NCBI GenBank assembly: GCA_964016885.1
Contig: CAXHJY010000144.1
Coordinates: 1-64,000, forward strand
Direction of reading: 5' to 3'
Source: Eledone cirrhosa
Lineage: Eukaryota
Length of the DNA: 64,000 nt
Shown piece after piece: positions 5,181 to 53,580 of this stretch (positions are counted from its first letter, which is position 1; the number at the start of each line of letters is the position of its first letter). The position numbers were made by a program, and so were the translations under genes. A model generated the notes under the pieces. It made no database searches, was not told the DNA's origin, and was given only the letters and a program-made list of their open reading frames with translations.

Positions 5181-5608
5181 GATGGGCTATAGCTGTAATT
5201 GAATGGGTCAGTAATGTCACACTGAATTTTATTTAGATTAATATTACAGGTAAACATGTCTGTGGAATGCTCAGCCACTTGCATGTTAATTTCATTTGCT
5301 GGCTACTCAATTGATTGAACAACTTGAATACTCATCGTCAAAACTGACAGAAGCCCATTTCAGATTATTATACCAAGTATGGGCCCAGATGTGGGTGTGA
5401 GGTTAAGAAGTTTGCTTTGCAACAACCACACAATTCAGGGTTACAATTTCACCAGTGCATGATATATATATATTTATATGTAATCTGAGTTTTTCGAATA
5501 TTAATAATAACATTCGATTCATTTGCAATTATGCAAACAAGCCTCAATTTTATAGCCATGTCAGTAGAATGAACACTGCATTCTTGCTCTTGTGTTGGCA
5601 TGCGAACA

Positions 5609-5658
5609 GAACTACAGACACTAATGTTTCTGGGTATCACCCTTCATCAGTACAGCTC
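5609..5658 (-). ncRNA. Type I hammerhead ribozyme (inverted copy)
   Basis: Reverse complement of the 6039-6088 motif. Stem I gagctgta/tgtagttc. Confidence 0.8.
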
Positions 5659-6038
5659 ACTGTTCACCTGCCAAACTGTCGCATGCCAACACAAGAGCAA
5701 GAATGAAGTGTTCATTCTACTGACATGGCTATAAAATTGATGCTTGTTTGCATAATTGCAAATGAATCGAATGTTATTATTAATATTCGAAAAACTCAGA
5801 TTACATTTATTGTATTCAGCCATGTAGAGCAAATTTTTCTTTTTTATTTATCGCCCATATACAGGAAACTGACTGGCCAGTCTGCTGATATGCAAATCTG
5901 GCTGATCAGTGGATCTGCTACTATGCAGATCTGACTGATCAGCCAGTCTGCTAATATGCAAATCAGGCCGATCAGTCACTGTATTATTGAAAATAGCATA
6001 TATTTTCACTAGCTCTGACAGTTTGGCAGGTCAACAGT

Positions 6039-6088
6039 GAGCTGTACTGATGAAGGGTGATACCCAGAAACATTAGTGTCTGCAGCTC
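6039..6088 (+). ncRNA. Type I hammerhead ribozyme
   Basis: Stem I gagctgta/tgcagctc, CTGATGA core, stem II gggt/accc, GAAA, stem III aca/tgt, GUC site at 6078-6080. Confidence 0.85.
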
Positions 6089-6283
6089 TGTTCACATGCC
6101 AACACAAGAGCTAGAATGCAGTGTTCATTCTACTGACATGGCTATAAAATTGATGCTTGTTTGCATAATTGCAAATGAATCGAATGGTATTATTAATATT
6201 CGAAAAACTCAGATTACATTTATTGTACTCAGCCATGTAGAACGAATTTTTCTTTTTTCATATATATATATTTATATATATAT

Positions 6284-32137: not shown

Positions 32138-32482
32138 ACCCCGTCCCACCACCCCCACCCCATCCACACCACCCCATTCTATGTAAAGTTATGTTGGTGC
32201 CGCGCCATCCAGGCCGAAACAAATGAGATCGTGTAGGTGTCACGACAAAAAAACACACAGTCCACGCTGTAATGTGGCCATGTAGGCAACACGGTAAAAA
32301 CCTCCCAGACCCACACTGTAAATGTGGTTGGTGTTAGGAAGGGCATCCAACTGTAGAAAACCTGCCAGACAGTCCTATGCGAGCAAGACAATCACTCTTG
32401 CCTCAAGTGGGACTACCCCCATCCAAACCCATGCAAGCGTGGAACACGGACGTTAAACGTTGATGATGATGATGATGATGAT
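32138..32482 (+). mobile_element. RTE 3' UTR-only insertion
   Basis: Matches the 3' UTR at 6327-6670. Flanked by TA tracts. Confidence 0.9.
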
Positions 32483-32701
32483 TATATATATATATTATAT
32501 ATTGTAAATGACCCCATTGAGTGTAAACTCTAAGTTATATTATATATATATTATATATATATATTTATTATATATATATATATTATATATATATATTATA
32601 TATATATATATTATATATATATTATATATATATATATATATATTATATATATTATATATATATATATATATTATATATATATATATTATATATATATTAT
32701 A

Positions 32702-32894
<193 letters not shown>

Positions 32895-33038
32895 TATATA
32901 TATATATATATATATGAATATAGACATAGAATATTCGAAAATATTCTGTATGTTTATAATAAACATTTTGAAGACCTAATCGCTATAGAATAGAATACGT
33001 CACGTATTACAATTAGATTCTCGATAAAAGCAAGGGAA

Positions 33039-33081
33039 GTAATCTACGCGTTTCATTCTTATTAGAAATCTTCAGGACTAC
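33039..33081 (-). ncRNA. Minimal type I hammerhead ribozyme, inverted unit
   Basis: Exact reverse complement of 33268-33310. Confidence 0.85.
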
Positions 33082-33267
33082 ATATCGAGTGCTTTTATCG
33101 AGAATGACACAGCTAGAGACTTCACATATATATCGCTATTTCAGAGCATTTATTCCAATTTCTAATTTCTGCCGGACCGGCAACCGCTCTTTCAAACCAG
33201 TTCCTGTACACAGCTAAGTATTCTATAAGTCTCTAGCTGTGTCATTCTCGATAAAAGCACTGGATAT

Positions 33268-33310
33268 GTAGTCCTGAAGATTTCTAATAAGAATGAAACG
33301 CGTAGATTAC
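33268..33310 (+). ncRNA. Minimal type I hammerhead ribozyme, unit 1
   Basis: gtagtc-CTGAAGA-t ttct aata agaa t-GAAA-cgcg-TA-gattac. Palindromic stem III ACGCGT, GUA site. Confidence 0.88.
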
Positions 33311-33577
33311 TTCCCTTGCTTTTATCGAGAATCTAATTGTAATACGTGACGTATTCTATTCTATAGCGATTAGGTCTTCAAAATGTTTATTATAAACATA
33401 CAGAATATTTTCGAATATTCTATGTCTATATTCACATATATATCGCTATTTCAGAGCATTTATTCCAATTTCTAATTTCTGCCGGACCGGCAACCGCTCT
33501 TTCAAACCAGTTCCTGTACACAGCTAAGTATTCTATAAGTCTCTAGCTGTGTCATTCTCGATAAAAGCACTGGATAT

Positions 33578-33620
33578 GTAGTCCTGAAGATTTCTAATAA
33601 GAATGAAACGCGTAGATTAC
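33578..33620 (+). ncRNA. Minimal type I hammerhead ribozyme, unit 2
   Basis: Identical motif exactly 310 nt downstream. Confidence 0.88.
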
Positions 33621-33773
33621 TTCCCTTGCTTTTATCGAGAATCTAATTGTAATACGTGACGTATTCTATTCTATAGCGATTAGGTCTTCAAAATGTTTAT
33701 TATAAACATACAGAATATTTTCGAATATTCTATGTCTATATTCACATATATATCGCTATTTCAGAGCATTTAT

Positions 33774-33815
<42 letters not shown>

Positions 33816-34230: not shown

Positions 34231-34285
34231 ATATATATATATTATATATATTATATATATATATATATTATATATATATTATATA

Positions 34286-37200
34286 TCATCATCATCATCA
34301 TCATCATCGTTTAATGTCCCTGCTCCACGCTTGCATGGGTTTGGACGGGAGTTTTCCCACTTGAGGCAAGAGTCGTTGTCTTGCTCGCATAGGACTGTCT
34401 GGCGGGTTTTCTACAGCTGGATGCCCTTCCTAACACCAACCACATTTACAGTGTGGGACTGGGAGGTTTTTACCGTGTTGCCTACACGGCCACATTACAG
34501 CGTGGACTGTGTGTTTTTTTGTCGTGACACCTACACAATCTCATTTGTTTCGGCCTGGATGTTGTGGCACCAACATAACTTTACATTGAAAGGGGCGGTG
34601 TGGATGGGGTGGGGATAGTGGGACGGGGGTGTAATTTGTTAGAGGTGCCTACTGACTGTAGTAGGTTTCACTTTGTACTTAGGTAAGGCGGGTCTTCTCT
34701 ATTACTGTGTAGCGCCAAAGCTCTCGGTCCAGTGACATTGTCTTGGAGAGGTGTAAGTGTGTGAGGTCGGAGTTTATCAGGTTGTCCCAGGTTTTTCTGG
34801 GTCTGCCTACTCCGTGGCTACCATCTATCTTTATTGCCCTGCACTTTGCTATACAGCTGTCGTCTTTCATGCGCATCACGTGACCATACCAATGTAGCCT
34901 TCTCTCGAGTAAACAACATCTGATCCCTCTTATTTCTAATTTTTTCCTTAGTTCGTTTATGCTTTGCCGTTCGCGTATATTACTATTACACATCCAGCGG
35001 AGCATGCAAGCTTCGTTCCTCTCTAGTCTGCATATATCCTCTGCACACATTGCCCAGGTCTCACTGCCATGCAACATTGCTGTTCGTATGCAGGCATCAT
35101 ACAACCTGCCTTTCATTTTTAGGGAGAACCCTTTAGCGGCTAATAGTGGTATAAGCTCTCTGAACTTTTTCCATCCAGTTCTGACTCTAGCTACTGTACT
35201 TTCAGAGCACCCTCCTCCACTGCTGATTTTGTCACCCAGGTAATGGAAGCTGTCCACTATTTCTATAGAACCCTCTGCGCAATTGAAAGAGCTAGTATTT
35301 GTGGGCACTTGCTGCTACTTATTGCACCAGAGCACTGGCCACATGTAAAATCTATGTTTTTAGTTAGCTTACCTATGATCCCACTACATCTTTTATGCAC
35401 CCATACTTTGCATTTGGGACATAAAATGGAGTTTCTACCTACACCTTTCCTACACACTGAGCATGGCCATTTCCCGGAAGGGACCGGCGCCTTATTTTCT
35501 TTCCTACAAACTAGAACTTTAGTCTTAGCCAGGTTAATTTTAAGGCCTTTTGATTCTAGGCCGTGCTTCCATGTTTGGAATTTCTTCTCTAGCTCGGCCA
35601 TTGATTCAGCTATGAGCGTTAGATCATCTGCGTATAGGAGTTCCCATGGGTAGCCGGTCTTGAACTCCACTGTTATAGCCTGAAGGGCAATAATAAATAG
35701 TAGGGGGCTAAGAACAGAGCCCTGATGAACACCAACTTTTACGCTAAACTCTTCACTATATTCGTTGTTTATTCTCACCTTGCTGACTGCTTATTTATAC
35801 ATGGCTTGTATAGCTCTCACAAGCCATTCATCAACACCTAGTTTTCTAAGAGCCCACCAGATAATGGAATGGGGGACTCTGTCGAAGGCTTTCTCCAAGT
35901 CGACAAAGGCTAAGTATAGGGGGTTTACACCACCCCTTTCACGTGCATCACGTGACCGTACCAACGTAGTCTTCTCTCAAGTAAACAACATCTGATCCCT
36001 CTTATTTCTAATTTTTCCCTTAGTTCATTTATGCTTTGCCGTTCACGTATATTACTATTACACATCCAGCGGAGCATGCAAGCTTCGTTCCTCTCCAGTC
36101 TGCGTATATCCTCTGAACACAATGGCCAGGTCTCACTGCCATGTAACATTGCTGTTCGTATGCAGGCATCATACAGCCTGCCTTTCATTTTTAGAGAGAA
36201 CCTTTTAGCGGCTAATAGTGATATAAGCTCTCTGAACTTTTTCCATCCAGTTCTGACTCTAGCTACTGTACTTTCAGAGCACCCTCCCCCACTGCTGATT
36301 TTGTCACCCAGGTAACGGAAGCTGTCCACTATTTCTATAGAACCCTCTGCGCAATTGAAAGAGCTAGTATTTTGTGGGCACTTGCTGCTACTTATTGCAC
36401 CAGAGCACCGGCCACATATAAAATCTATCTTCTTAGTTAGCTTAACTGTGATCCCACTACATCTTTTATGCACCCGTACTTTGCATTTGGGACATAAAAT
36501 GGAGTTTCTACCTACTCCTTTCCTACACACTGAGCATGGCCATTTCCCGGATGGGACCGGTGCCCTATTTTCCTTCCTACAAACTAGAACTTTAGTCTTA
36601 GACAGGTTAATTTTAAGGCCTTTTGATTCTAGACCATGCTTCTTGTCTAGTTCAGCCATTGATTCAGCTATGAGCGTTAGATCATCTGCGTATAGGAATT
36701 CCCATGGGCAGCCGGTCTTGAACTCTTCTGTTATAGCCTGAAGGGCAATAATAAATAGTAGGGGGCTAAGAACAAAGCCCTGATGAACACCTACTTTTAC
36801 GCTAAACTCTTCGCTATATTCGTTGTTAATTCTAACCTTGCTGACTGTTTCTTTATACATGGCTTGTATAGCTCTCACAAGCCATTCATCAACACCTAGT
36901 TTTCTAAGAGCCCACCAGATAATGGAACGGGGGACTCTGTCAAAGGCTTACTCCAAGTCGACAAAGGTTAAGTATAGGGGTTTACTTTTAGCTAGGTACT
37001 TCTCCTGTAGTTGTCGTACAATGAAAAGAGCGTCTGTGGTACTTTTACCTGACACAAACCCGAACTGCATTTCATCTAGATCAATTCGCTCTCTGATTAG
37101 TTGCGCTATTACTATTTCTGTGACCTTCATGACCTGGTCGAATTATTTAATGCCACTATTGTTACCCCTATCTAGAGCATCTCCTTTACCCTTGTAGCAG

Positions 37201-42824: not shown

Positions 42825-44150
42825 ATGGATTCTTTAGCCCTGAGTGAATTCAATGGTAACCTCTCTCCATCAATAACACCTCTACAGACTGAAGAAATAC
42901 ACAAGCAGCTGAACTCTAAACCAGTTTTCCCCAATGACTTCCATTTGAAACAATCCCCATGGGCCTTTAGTTTAGAAAAGTGCAACATGAAAGATAACAA
43001 TATGTCTCAACAACCATATATTCAAGATTTATCATCCAATGTTAATAGTCCAGTGGTCAGTCAAAAATCCTGTACTCCGATGAACAGCACAGATCGTAAT
43101 TTATACTCAAAAAATTTCTTATTAATGCCATCAATTCAAACCCTACAGCAAGACCAAAAATCAAAGGCTTCCATTTCTGATCAACATTGTTATAAAAGCA
43201 ACATGATTTGCCATGTCGATGGCTGCCAAGACCACAATATCAGGACTACTACCTCGAAAACACTCAATATTCCTACTGTGAGGTGTCAGAAGAATCACGA
43301 ACAACATTCTCAATCTAATAAAGATAGATGTACTCCTGGCCAGGAGTTTGAGTCACAACGATTCCACTGCACAGTTTGCAGTAAGAGCTATGCACGATCT
43401 AATCAACTTGTATGCCACAACAGGGTCCACACAGGAGAAAAGCCTTATCCCTGTGATGAATGTGAAAAGAAATTTACTCGCTCAGATCAATTGAAGTACC
43501 ACAAGCGCACCCACAGTGGAGAGAAGCCTTACCAGTGTACATTTTGTCCAAAAAGCTTTGCACGTTCAGACAAACTGAAATGCCACATTCGTGTTCACAC
43601 GGGTGAAAAACCATACCACTGCGTGACATGTGGCAAGCAGTTTGCCCGCTCTGACAAACTACGAGCCCATGAGCGCATACACACTGGTGAAAAGCCCTAC
43701 CATTGTGACCTTTGCCCAAAAACATTTGCTCAGTCCGACAAACTACGCTGTCATAGGCGTGTCCATACTGGGGAGAAACCCTACCATTGCAGTGAATGCG
43801 GCAAACAGTTCTCCCGCTCTGACAAACTTGTCCAGCACAAACGAATTCACACTGGGGAAAGACCATTTCGTTGTAATATTTGTTCAAAACAGTTTCTCCG
43901 TTCTGATAAAATGCAATTGCACCGGAAAACCCATTTTGTTGCACCATCAACAGTTTTGTTACCAAAAACAACTGTAAAACAGCAGTGTCCAAAGTTAAAC
44001 AGCCATACAGAAGCTCGCCCCTCAATTAGTTCAACTTTAACCAACGATGATGTTATCTGCATTGATGATACTGAACTGGCTGTCCTTACAAATAAAAACT
44101 TAAAGGACTACATACCAAATAACCCCTATTTCTGGCATACAGTCAACTGA
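42825..44150 (+). CDS. C2H2 zinc-finger protein, 7 tandem Kruppel-type fingers, 441 aa
   Basis: Seven CxxC-x12-HxxxH fingers with TGEKP-type linkers. Intact ORF. Confidence 0.95.
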   Translation: MDSLALSEFNGNLSPSITPLQTEEIHKQLNSKPVFPNDFHLKQSPWAFSLEKCNMKDNNMSQQPYIQDLSSNVNSPVVSQKSCTPMNSTDRNLYSKNFLLMPSIQTLQQDQKSKASISDQHCYKSNMICHVDGCQDHNIRTTTSKTLNIPTVRCQKNHEQHSQSNKDRCTPGQEFESQRFHCTVCSKSYARSNQLVCHNRVHTGEKPYPCDECEKKFTRSDQLKYHKRTHSGEKPYQCTFCPKSFARSDKLKCHIRVHTGEKPYHCVTCGKQFARSDKLRAHERIHTGEKPYHCDLCPKTFAQSDKLRCHRRVHTGEKPYHCSECGKQFSRSDKLVQHKRIHTGERPFRCNICSKQFLRSDKMQLHRKTHFVAPSTVLLPKTTVKQQCPKLNSHTEARPSISSTLTNDDVICIDDTELAVLTNKNLKDYIPNNPYFWHTVN

Positions 44151-49747: not shown

Positions 49748-49898
49748 TATATATATATATATAAGTAGAAGGAGTATTTAATTTGTTGGAAGTCTGACAA
49801 ATATAAATGTTTATAACTGATTTAGAGCACTCAACGGATACTGGAGTAAATATTCAATGATATTAAATAAATGGAAACTATATTTATAAAACCATATT

Positions 49899-49960
49899 TA
49901 TTTTATTATATATATTTCAAGGGTACCAAGGACATTGGTACGCTTTCATCAGATAAAATA
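49899..49960 (-). ncRNA. Type I hammerhead in the inverted pLTR
   Basis: Same motif with a better stem II (aagcgtaccaa/ttggtaccctt). Confidence 0.8.
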
Positions 49961-52904
49961 CAAAGTTTGTTTTATAAATAGAGACATACCCATGAAAATC
50001 ATACCTTATCGGTTGGATATTCACTGGATAGTGGAAATATATTAGTGATTTTTCAAACTTATGTGTGAATATGCAAATGAATATGTAAATAATTGAAAAG
50101 CAACCGTTTATTTAAACGACTATGGAAAAAGAGAGAGATAAGAGGAGAGGATAAAATAGTGCGAGAGAGAAGAAAGAGAAGATGAATAAAACCCATATAA
50201 CGTTAATTTGAGGGAAATATACTGTAAGTATATATCTTAATAGTACGTGTATTTACGATTATTAGTTGTTTAAAATTTGTTTATAATATAATATTTTTCT
50301 TCTGTTATAAGTAGATAAATAAATGGGTATATCATGTTATAGATAATTGTTTAATGAGTTATGAGGGATATTGGTTTTGTATTTAATGTAAATAAATATT
50401 AAGTTAAATTAGATTAACTGAGTTAAGAATATTTATATTTATATGATTTAAAATGGGAAGATACGGAAAAAAACTCTGGTTTAATTTATTTATTCGTTAG
50501 TGTGAGACTATTTAGTCAAATAAGCTCTTATCTATGCATCTAAACATACAGATTTATCTAGCGAAGAAATGAATATCATTTTAACTGCACGGAAAACTAT
50601 TATTGAATTCAACAATCATCTCTGGACAAGAGCCGATAGAAAAAATAATTTTGATATCACCATGGGATCATCTGACTCAGCGCAAATAACGGATCTTGTG
50701 GGGCTATTTATTAATAATACACTGCATAGAAAAATACCAGAGATGACCGGTGGTTTATATCGTGATGATATGCTGCTTTTAATTGAAAATCATAGTAATT
50801 GTGAAATTAATAGGAAAAGAAAATCCATAATAGCTACAACCTTAAATTAGAAATAGAGAATAACTATAAAATTGTTAACTTTTTAGACGTTACATTAAAC
50901 CTTAACACAGGGCTCTACTATCCATTCCATAAAATTAATGAGAATCTAAATTATGTAAGTTTTAACTCTAATCATCCTAGATCTATCAAGAACACTATCG
51001 TCAATTCTGTCCAACAACGCATCTCTGCTAATAAAAACATTTTTGACGATAAGGCAAAATATTATAATGAAGCTTTAAATAGAGCAGTGTATATAAATAA
51101 GATTAAATACATCGACAACAGTAATAAGCCAACTAACCCTACTATTAATTGTAATAATAATAAAAAATTTAACTTAAACTCTAAAACTAACAGAAGAAAT
51201 AGAACTAGAAATATTATTTGGTACTCACCCCCATTCTCATTAAGCGTAAAAACACCTTTAGCAAAGCTATTCTTTAAAGCACTAAATAAATGTTTTCCTA
51301 AAGCCCACAGATACCACTCAATCTTTAACAGACATACTATAAAACTATCCTACTCTACTACTATGAACATAGCACAAAATATTAATAGAATTAATAATAG
51401 AAATTTAAACCCTAACCAAAATAGCAGTAATATCTCTAGCAATATCCAACATAATAGTACCGTTCCGAACAACAACAACTCCGCAGAATGTAACTAGAAT
51501 TAAATCAAACTGTCCCTTACAAAATAAGTGTTTAGATAAAAATGTGGTTTAAATGTGTACAGTTAAAACTAGTGATAATATATTTAACTATGTCGGTGCA
51601 ACTTCTACAGAATTTAAAAGTCGCTGGAATAACCACAAATGCTCTTTCCGAAAATTTGATAAAAAATCTTCAACTTCTCTTTCAAACCTGACATGGAACT
51701 TAAAATGCAAGAATACGGACTATCATTAGCTTGGGAAACAGTTTCAAAGGTGTACCGAAACACAGCTTTATCTAGATTCTGCAAATTGTGTATTGAGGAA
51801 ATTTTTTTCATACTTAAATGTAAAAACTCTATTAATCTAAGAACAAATTTATTTATTCTTGTAGACATCGCCAGAATTCAACATTCAGAACTATATATAA
51901 CTTATAATTATACTTATAGTATTTTTACAACAATCTCATCCACTTGGTTTTAATATTTTGATATCTCTAAATGATATCTATAACATTTGCTGTAATTCCA
52001 CTTCTTAAAGTTTCATAAAATATATACGTATATAATTCTAATCTATTTTTTTTTATTTTAATTTTAATTCTAATAATTTGTATTTCTTTATTTTTATTTC
52101 TTAAATTTTTATTTCTTTAAAAATTACTTATCTCTTATAAATTTTTTTTTTTTTTTAAAACATCTCAAATTTTTCAATACTTTTTCAATATTTTTTCAAT
52201 AGATTTATAACCACTAACTGATTCTGGCTAAATGTATCTTTCAACATCTATACTTATTTTGACTAAATAGTCTCACACTAACGAATAAATAAATTAAACC
52301 GGAGTTTTTTTCAGTATCTTCCCATTTTAGATCATATAAATATTCTTATTAACTACAGAATATAAATTAATAAAAATATAAATATTCTTATTAACTCAGT
52401 TAATTTAATTTAATTTAACTTAATATTTATTTACATTAAATACAAAACCAATATCCCTCATAACTCATTAAACAATTATCTATAACATGATATACCCATT
52501 TATTTATTTATTTATGCATTTATTTATTTATTTATCTACTTATAACAGAAGAAAAATATTATATTATAAACAAATTTTAAACAACTATTAATCGTAAATA
52601 CACGTACTATTAAGATATATACTTCGAATATATTTCCCTCATTTAACGTTATATGGGTTTTATTCATCTTCTCTTGTTTCTTTCTTCTCTCTGTCTCTCT
52701 CGCACTATTTTATCCTCTCCTCTTATCTCTTCTCTCTCTCTCCATAGTCGTTTAAATAAACGGTTGTTTTTCAATTATTTACATATTCATTTGCATATTC
52801 ACACAAGTTTGAAAAATCCTTAATATATTTCCACTATCCAGTGAATATCCAACCGATAAGGTATGATTTTCATGGGTATGTCTCTATTTATAAAACAAAC
52901 TTTG

Positions 52905-52966
52905 TATTTTATCTGATGAAAGTGAACCAATGTTCTTGGTACCCTTGAAATATATATAATAAAATA
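52905..52966 (+). ncRNA. Type I hammerhead in the PLE pLTR
   Basis: tattttat-CTGATGA-aag...accaa/ttggt...ctt-GAAA-tatata-TA-ataaaata. Palindromic stem III. Confidence 0.8.
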
Positions 52967-53008
52967 AATATGGTTTTATAAATATAGTTTCCATTTATTT
53001 AATATCAT

Positions 53009-53218
<210 letters not shown>

Positions 53219-53244
53219 TATATATATATATATACACATATATA

Positions 53245-53580
53245 TCATCATTTCATTTTACGTCCACCTTTCCCTGCTTGCAAGGGTGGGACGGGAACTG
53301 ATTCTGGCTTGATTTCTACAGCTGGATGCCCTTCCTAACACCAACCTCATTTACAGTGAGTGCTGGGTGCTTTTTTGCCGTGGCACCTCCACGACCACTT
53401 TGCAGTGGAATGATAGGGACCCCAGTCCCTATCATCTCATTTCTACAGCTGAGTAAACTGGAGCAATGTGAAATAAAGTGTCTTGCTCAAGGAAACAACA
53501 CATCACCCAGTCTGAGAATTGAACTCACAACCTTTCGATTGCAAGGCCAATGCTCTAACCACTAAGCCATGTGCCTCCAC
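53245..53580 (-). mobile_element. Full-length family-B SINE with RTE-derived tail
   Basis: tRNA-like head at 53510-53580. The tail 53245-53400 matches the RTE-type 3' UTR at 59150-59295. Confidence 0.82.

Follow-up and report, generated by a model that had tools for sequence, protein, structure and literature searches.

A very young family of 310-nt hammerhead retrozymes in Eledone cirrhosa with strictly paired insertion ends and clonal inverted arms

Insertions of a 310-nt noncoding hammerhead repeat in the genome of Eledone cirrhosa lie in (TA)n tracts and carry clonal arms that face each other head to head, with their RNA-sense 3′ ends outward. The outer ends fall at two fixed registers 35 nt apart, and insertions with both ends seen have one of each. 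The repeat is a non-LTR retrozyme and an ordinary member of that described class. It is probably a nonautonomous Penelope-like element (PLE), for which a PLE reverse transcriptase (RT) dimer would prime two rolling cDNAs on one ribozyme-made 310-nt circle. With more than 1,000 near-identical insertions, the family is a natural experiment that records strict start-site pairing, clonal arms and selection on the fold.

The window locus and its family

The window, a stretch of 64,000 nt from one E. cirrhosa contig, contains one insertion of the family, flanked by TA repeats, at positions 32,536 to 33,811 (Table 1). Registers are counted from the first base 3′ of the predicted cleavage site (33305, register 1). 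An exact 310-nt period extends over 659 nt with 34% GC, so the two identical units of the initial annotation are confirmed, and the array ends 3′ in the first 39 nt of a third unit, which contain the 35-nt tail. The tail opens with an 8-nt AT run (33746-33753), the same as the target repeat. The inverted partial unit and the (TA)n tracts on both sides, which had also been described, were found as well. This arm is identical to the unit over 32915-33086 and 99% identical across 217 nt, has one private substitution at register 268, and carries its own hammerhead. The monomer is noncoding, its longest open frame being 59 amino acids in six frames, even when it is read as a circle. A 16-nt block within it possibly has a promoter or RT-binding role. 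The hairpin at 33712-33731 keeps its structure with a changed sequence in a sister family of about 320 nt; by analogy to PMC11167929, it is a candidate RT-binding stem-loop.

Table 1. Features of the insertion in the window, with loci of the sister family
Feature	Position	Strand	Remarks
Left (TA)n tract	32536..32914	.	Insertion target, outside the element
Inverted arm, 0.67 unit	32915..33122	-	Short end, at register 130; RNA-sense 3′ end outward
Type I hammerhead of the inverted arm	33039..33081	-	Predicted cleavage after 33045
Direct arm, 2.13 identical 310-nt units	33121..33779	+	3′ end at register 165 (tail end)
16-bp helix, 33244-33259 with 33317-33332	33244..33332	+	Closes the ribozyme and the ends of the putative excised monomer
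Type I hammerhead 1	33268..33310	+	Predicted cleavage after 33304
Predicted excised 310-nt monomer, candidate circle	33305..33614	+	Registers 1-310; presumed to be excised and ligated
Type I hammerhead 2	33578..33620	+	Predicted cleavage after 33614
16-nt block	33485..33500, also 33175-33190	+	Retained in the ~320-nt sister family
Hairpin directly 5′ of the short start site	33712..33731, also 33402-33421	+	From fold analysis and sister-family comparison
35-nt tail	33745..33779	+	Between putative RT start registers 130 and 165
Right (TA)n tract	33780..33811	.	Insertion target
~320-nt sister retrozyme family	L136-L165, L045:4018-4400, L206-L229		Older than the 310-nt family

The 3.0-Gb genome contains 2,575 exact copies of the core of the window unit, arranged in arrays with a 310-nt spacing, and the family has at least 1,355 insertion ends there. 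Every unit has a type I hammerhead, and the repeats are short, low in GC, tandem and present in multiple dispersed copies. Together with the lack of coding capacity, these features uphold the initial identification as a retrozyme. Non-LTR retrozymes lack LTRs, a primer-binding site and a polypurine tract, and any target-site duplications that they have exceed 4 bp; no LTR pair was seen in the insertions fetched, whose flanks are (TA)n. Fetched copies were mostly 98 to 100% identical to the window unit. The 310-nt family is very young, and the window locus is one insertion of it. Allele 284A was present in 17 of 73 insertions, and 294T likewise in 17/73. Since the core allele of the window is a minority allele, the family is larger than the 2,575 exact cores; a rough extrapolation from 959 units in 109 insertions suggests about 10,000 units genome-wide. 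The repeat landscape would fit an octopod genome. Older 310-nt subfamilies (L234, L239, L222 and L230) were about 95% identical and homogeneous within arrays.

Runs of three other studies (X4, X5 and X6) each yielded the whole unit with two to three differences (~99% identity). These runs carry three other organism labels, and the unit may have reached them through close relatives, environmental DNA or transfer. Each gave a contig of one 340-nt piece, read as 310 nt plus a 30-nt overlap; tandem DNA closes a 340-nt loop as readily as an RNA circle does, so the contigs were not used for circularity. None of the runs listed as containing the unit is recorded as RNA, which says nothing about expression. 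An assembly artifact, the initial caution about the duplication, was rejected because of the 2,575 exact cores and the whole units in those runs. Left out of the counts were L036 (a diverged solo copy), L039 (duplicated, beside an N gap), L169 (overlapping L170), L033/L034 (L054 was used instead), a piece of the sister family in L045 and an inner piece of L046.

The window holds several other elements. A second hammerhead-bearing noncoding element with inverted arms lies between TA tracts at 5475-6258; it has a period of ~413 nt and cores at 5650 (-) and 6047 (+), and its right arm is ~40 nt longer than its left, again giving one tail. Two inverted copies of a dispersed repeat of ~360 nt flank the retrozyme insertion (32139-32502 and 34263-34628). 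The window has about ten copies of this repeat, which seems to bear no relation to the retrozyme. A tRNA-like match at the Rfam threshold (29.9 bits; 53508-53571, minus strand) is probably a SINE head. An 84-nt tandem repeat at 43596-43828 has a period and sequence suggestive of C2H2 zinc-finger coding units.

Insertion ends and the template of each insertion

Genome-wide, junctions to the TA repeat numbered 1,015 at register 165 and 1,355 at registers 130/139, the short end point being ambiguous because registers 132 to 139 are themselves an AT run. None lay at the cleavage site. The TA repeat followed 196 of the 201 arm ends examined. Most loci had been found through TA junction patterns, and 15 regions found by the core show the same TA flanks. 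Inner 5′ ends were spread over the entire unit, mildly unevenly (chi-square p 0.02), and were not enriched at the cleavage site (5/204 observed, 7.2 expected), which is unlike run-off from a cleaved linear RNA. The permuted endpoints expected at the outset were thus found at the inner 5′ ends, which vary, but not at the outer ends, which are fixed.

The two kinds of outer end were strictly combined. The first 208 Mb of C1 had 176 listed ends (76 tail and 100 short), 68 of them with no listed partner. All 54 outward-facing neighbor pairs among these ends consisted of one short and one tail end (54/54), where random pairing would by simple arithmetic make about half of the pairs mixed. Two arms were present in 95 of the 109 fetched insertions, a sample enriched for pairs, and every two-armed insertion with both ends seen combined a short with a tail end (92/92), the other three running past the limit of the fetched sequence; by our tally, 46 of those 92 had not been selected as pairs. 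A literature search returned no account of this rule or of the 310-nt family; subscription papers and repeat databases lay outside that search, and the supplements of PMC7229834 and of a 2026 preprint may list related families.

Sequence variants tie the two arms of an insertion to one template. Across the same 109 insertions, 129 variant calls were fixed in both arms and 41 were fixed where one arm covers the site; the other calls comprised 124 singletons, 17 uninformative calls, 10 at intermediate frequency and 1 confined to a single arm. Of 110 comparisons in which one arm had a dominant minor allele, 109 showed that allele to be dominant in the second arm as well, and the insertions carried 36 haplotypes. 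Fifteen variants came from single sampled loci, each fixed in both arms. For example, 88T was present in 13/13 and 11/11 units of the two arms of its insertion. Genome-wide, 88T had 46 matches at 5 loci, 119G had 29 at 3 and 216G had 26 at 6, with the longest run of each lying within its own insertion (3/3). No parent units for these three variants were found; other 216G units were on other backgrounds, and the full 216G haplotype (9+9 units) had no other carrier in the genome. A new variant that is fixed at birth in both arms requires a one-unit bottleneck followed by re-amplification, and a monomer circle directly supplies both. The initial proposal of rolling synthesis therefore has genomic support, in clonal arms and in variants fixed across all units. 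There were exceptions to the one-template pattern: 276G at L097 was present in 7/7 units of one arm versus 2/6 of the other, and 51A at L077 was confined to one arm.

The same PLE twin priming could instead have used an uncleaved linear multimer from a few homogeneous master arrays. The circle would then be unnecessary, and the fold would have been retained for RT recognition or RNA stability. Unprocessed RNA was the main substrate in vitro in PMC11167929. At L062, a variant recurs in both arms at a matching offset, in one unit out of two, a pattern that fits a dimer or longer template. Sister loci with the 88T and 119G haplotypes might have been copied linearly from L074 and L103. The masters may be absent from this assembly, and a homogeneous array missing from it may be the source of the private variants. 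But a linear multimer cannot by its own action bring a new variant to fixation in all 13+11 units of the two arms, nor does it readily accommodate a 216G haplotype without another carrier or 36 haplotypes in 109 insertions. Same-offset singletons were also rare (one), against 15 rare variants that were fully fixed. We therefore regard a linear template as unlikely, though less so than the other alternatives.

Local growth of the arrays is a less probable source of their units. According to this explanation, proposed in bioRxiv 10.64898/2026.07.22.740005, PLE insertions are born with about one unit per arm, and arrays then grow by unequal exchange, as satellites do. Such a process does act. The arm of ~45 units at L169/L170 contains a 27-unit block repeat, L055 has period-7 variants, and L232 is a mosaic. 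DNA-level growth operates in these long arrays with a different signature, of intermediate frequency. As a general explanation it predicts intermediate variants, but only 10 were called against 124 singletons and 170 fixed calls, and 7 of those 10 were in arms of at least 19 units. Moreover, both arms exceeded one unit in 53 of 63 two-armed insertions, at 98 to 100% identity. It is hard to reconcile with these data that most arrays arose locally, and we give that course little credence.

Ribozyme fold, selection and a sister family

A descriptor search placed hammerhead cores at 33274 and 33584 (+) and at 33075 (-), the last in the inverted arm. In all, it returned seven cores in the window and none in any of 30 shuffles. 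The fold comprises a 6-bp stem I, a 4-bp stem II over a U.U mismatch, and the palindrome ACGCGT as stem III; the base of stem II is U.U in the window unit and A-U in the 287A subfamily. Pairing of the 16-bp closing helix is perfect, so that this helix and the self-complementary stem III are both as initially described. Two copies of ACGCGT would form a 6-bp intermolecular stem III with a computed energy of -9.5 kcal/mol, and the monomer folds with a z score of -4.56 relative to shuffles. The two plus-strand cores are 310 nt apart, in agreement with the cleavage sites and the 310-nt monomer predicted from the outset.

An Rfam scan of the window, also suggested initially, gave no hammerhead at the gathering score; the best hammerhead match was to HH9 (17 bits, E 0.4, against a threshold of 52). 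The label "canonical minimal" in the initial annotation is inaccurate. In the terms of PMC4209133, the unit is canonical, with a short palindromic helix III, but it is not minimal. It has the 6-bp helix I, the 4-bp helix II and the palindromic-loop helix III of canonical metazoan hammerheads as given there; where those hammerheads have a G10.1-C11.1 pair to begin helix II, the unit has U.U. Minimal hammerheads lack helix III and have a helix II of 7 to 8 bp, neither of which is true of the unit. Canonical metazoan type I hammerheads with a helix III of 1 to 2 bp work as dimers (PMC4209133). Dimeric self-cleavage is likewise suggested for the 310-nt repeat, indirectly, by the modeled intermolecular stem III and by selection on the fold.

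For the selection analysis, fixed variants were tallied as alleles and singletons as events. None of the 12 distinct variants fixed in the ribozyme or its closing helix disrupted the core, a pair or the palindrome, versus 28 of 36 singletons (Fisher p = 1.8e-6), in a region where 69% of all possible changes would be disruptive. All 12 fixed variants sit at N7 or in loop II, or else retain or gain a pair. These results show purifying selection that preserves the ribozyme fold as the element spreads. At core and palindrome positions alone, 6/36 singletons compared with 0/12 fixed variants are too few to separate selection for catalysis from selection for folding.

The sister family gave 1,458 motif matches, a few of which are variants of the 310-nt family. 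Although its ribozyme sequence has turned over, the flanking blocks and the fold have been kept, as have the two end registers, and the family has one end of each type wherever both ends were matched. Stem II covaries, and stem III consists of 12-nt palindromes whose centers change together, so pairing there is possible only between two copies. Among 26 distinct forms of the predicted sister hammerheads, positions 3 and 8 are U-A in 23 and C-G in 2; a search of PMC3088659 found no mention of a U3-A8 core.

At least five further hammerhead families occurred in the fetched flanks (L088, L090, L099, L001, L009, L043, L114 and L081), one with a stem II nearly identical to that of the 310-nt unit, U.U base included. 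Those at L088, L090 and L099, whose stem II is similar, were considered as kin and rejected because their flanks are unrelated.

Proposed route of insertion and comparison with known systems

The 35-nt tail, the inverted arm and the (TA)n bias point to mobilization by a PLE RT, as first proposed, with a partner that is presumed by analogy. Neither the ~0.95 Mb of DNA fetched nor two motif searches, which recovered only the sister family and variants, yielded a coding PLE sharing the ends of the unit, and the 310-nt insertions contain no RT plus GIY-YIG reading frame. That the units are pLTRs from 5′-truncated insertions of a coding PLE, with the ribozyme as a passenger, is largely refuted and very improbable: PLEs do characteristically show such a tail, inversion and TA target (PMC8557442), but every fetched insertion is unit sequence only, the units run head to tail with nothing intervening, and no coding carrier was found in the searched DNA, which bears on a doubt raised in the initial annotation.

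The window also contains a decayed PLE at 49762-53010. Its inverted terminal repeats measure ~770 nt and are 85% alike, and its RT and GIY-YIG frames are broken. In its hammerheads, at 49952 (-) and 52913 (+), stem III is an AT palindrome. One of its arms extends ~95 nt further outward than the other. It belongs to a very large family, and coding copies of PLEs abound, a first look having given 23,249 candidates for this element, with open frames of up to 699 amino acids. The C-terminal end is GIY-YIG-like, with a match below the cutoff. This end, the short length and the TA flanks suggest from sequence a member of the Hydra clade (PMC8557442). The element and 29 of its relatives have no similarity to the 310-nt unit. 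At L032:1040-1175, the 5′ end of a retrozyme arm is fused to a hammerhead-bearing PLE terminus in the same orientation. We set this fusion aside as evidence for a partner, since it is a single case that insertion beside an older copy explains equally well; a template switch is the alternative.

The route that we consider probable would begin with transcription of the arrays. Adjacent hammerheads would pair their palindromic stems III and excise 310-nt monomers, and a host ligase would circularize these, as in other animals (PMC7229834). By analogy to PMC11167929, a PLE RT-endonuclease dimer supplied in trans would then bind one RNA near the hairpin (registers 98 to 117) and cut both strands of a (TA)n tract. 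Each broken end would prime one cDNA, one at registers 130 to 139 and the other at 165. Both cDNAs would roll around the same circle for variable numbers of turns and be joined head to head at variable points. Long arrays may later lengthen by DNA-level duplication, as observed in one 45-unit arm.

A more specific form of this route has the active sites of the dimer 35 nt apart on one 310-nt circle and makes the ribozyme a requirement for spread; we lean slightly toward it. With each site extending one (TA)n end, a full insertion would have one tail, and its arms would be clones of one RNA. Two sets of in vitro results count against a ribozyme-made circle. Ribozyme cleavage was not needed by a lizard PLE, whose start site was the same between strands (PMC11167929), and of nine Xenopus retrozyme dimers, eight failed to cleave (bioRxiv 10.64898/2026.07.22.740005). 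If this specific form is true, a single mechanism would account for the tail of PLEs, their inverted pLTR and the function of their hammerheads. The function of hammerheads in PLEs and retrozymes was left open in PMC8557442. A circular template was proposed in PMC4209133 and PMC7229834 and was dispensable in vitro in PMC11167929; the insertion record is informative on this point as well as on the origin of the PLE tail and inversion.

The 310-nt unit is a substrate with two predicted start sites for direct reconstitution. Its insertions can be compared with L1 twin priming, in which each of two target ends primes a cDNA and the two products join head to head. In L1, the position of the second, internal start varies along a linear RNA, and there is no overlap between the arms. 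In contrast, the 310-nt family has fixed sites, and both of its arms extend over several units.

Among non-LTR retrozymes, those of coral, mussel and axolotl yield circles (PMC7229834). The 310-nt family resembles the metazoan retrozymes of that paper in its features, namely tandem, low-GC, noncoding units in the 150- to 450-bp range, a type I hammerhead and co-occurrence with PLEs. It shares the U.U pair at the base of helix II with axolotl HHR_Amex2 and the 1-bp helix III with a palindromic tetraloop with HHR_Amex1. Circles were demonstrated in that work, whereas one is presumed for the 310-nt family, and its available part mentions neither inverted arms nor fixed ends, nor does it describe a tail or insertion into (TA)n. 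A PLE origin of non-LTR retrozymes and their mobilization by PLEs were also concluded in bioRxiv 10.64898/2026.07.22.740005. There, the conclusion rests on co-occurrence and pLTR phylogeny in 31 vertebrates, 3 insects and a coral; here, it rests on the anatomy of the insertions, and the search gave no parent pLTR.

EN+ PLEs, including the Hydra clade, share with the family a 30- to 40-nt tail at one end, an inverted 5′-truncated copy and (TA)n bias (PMC8557442). The PLE tail is bounded by two internal RT start sites (PMC11167929), as in the 310-nt family. The family differs from EN+ PLEs in having no open reading frame and in having multiunit arms on both sides. While the PLE studied in PMC11167929 used its start sites alike on both strands in vitro, the 310-nt family strictly combines one short and one tail end.
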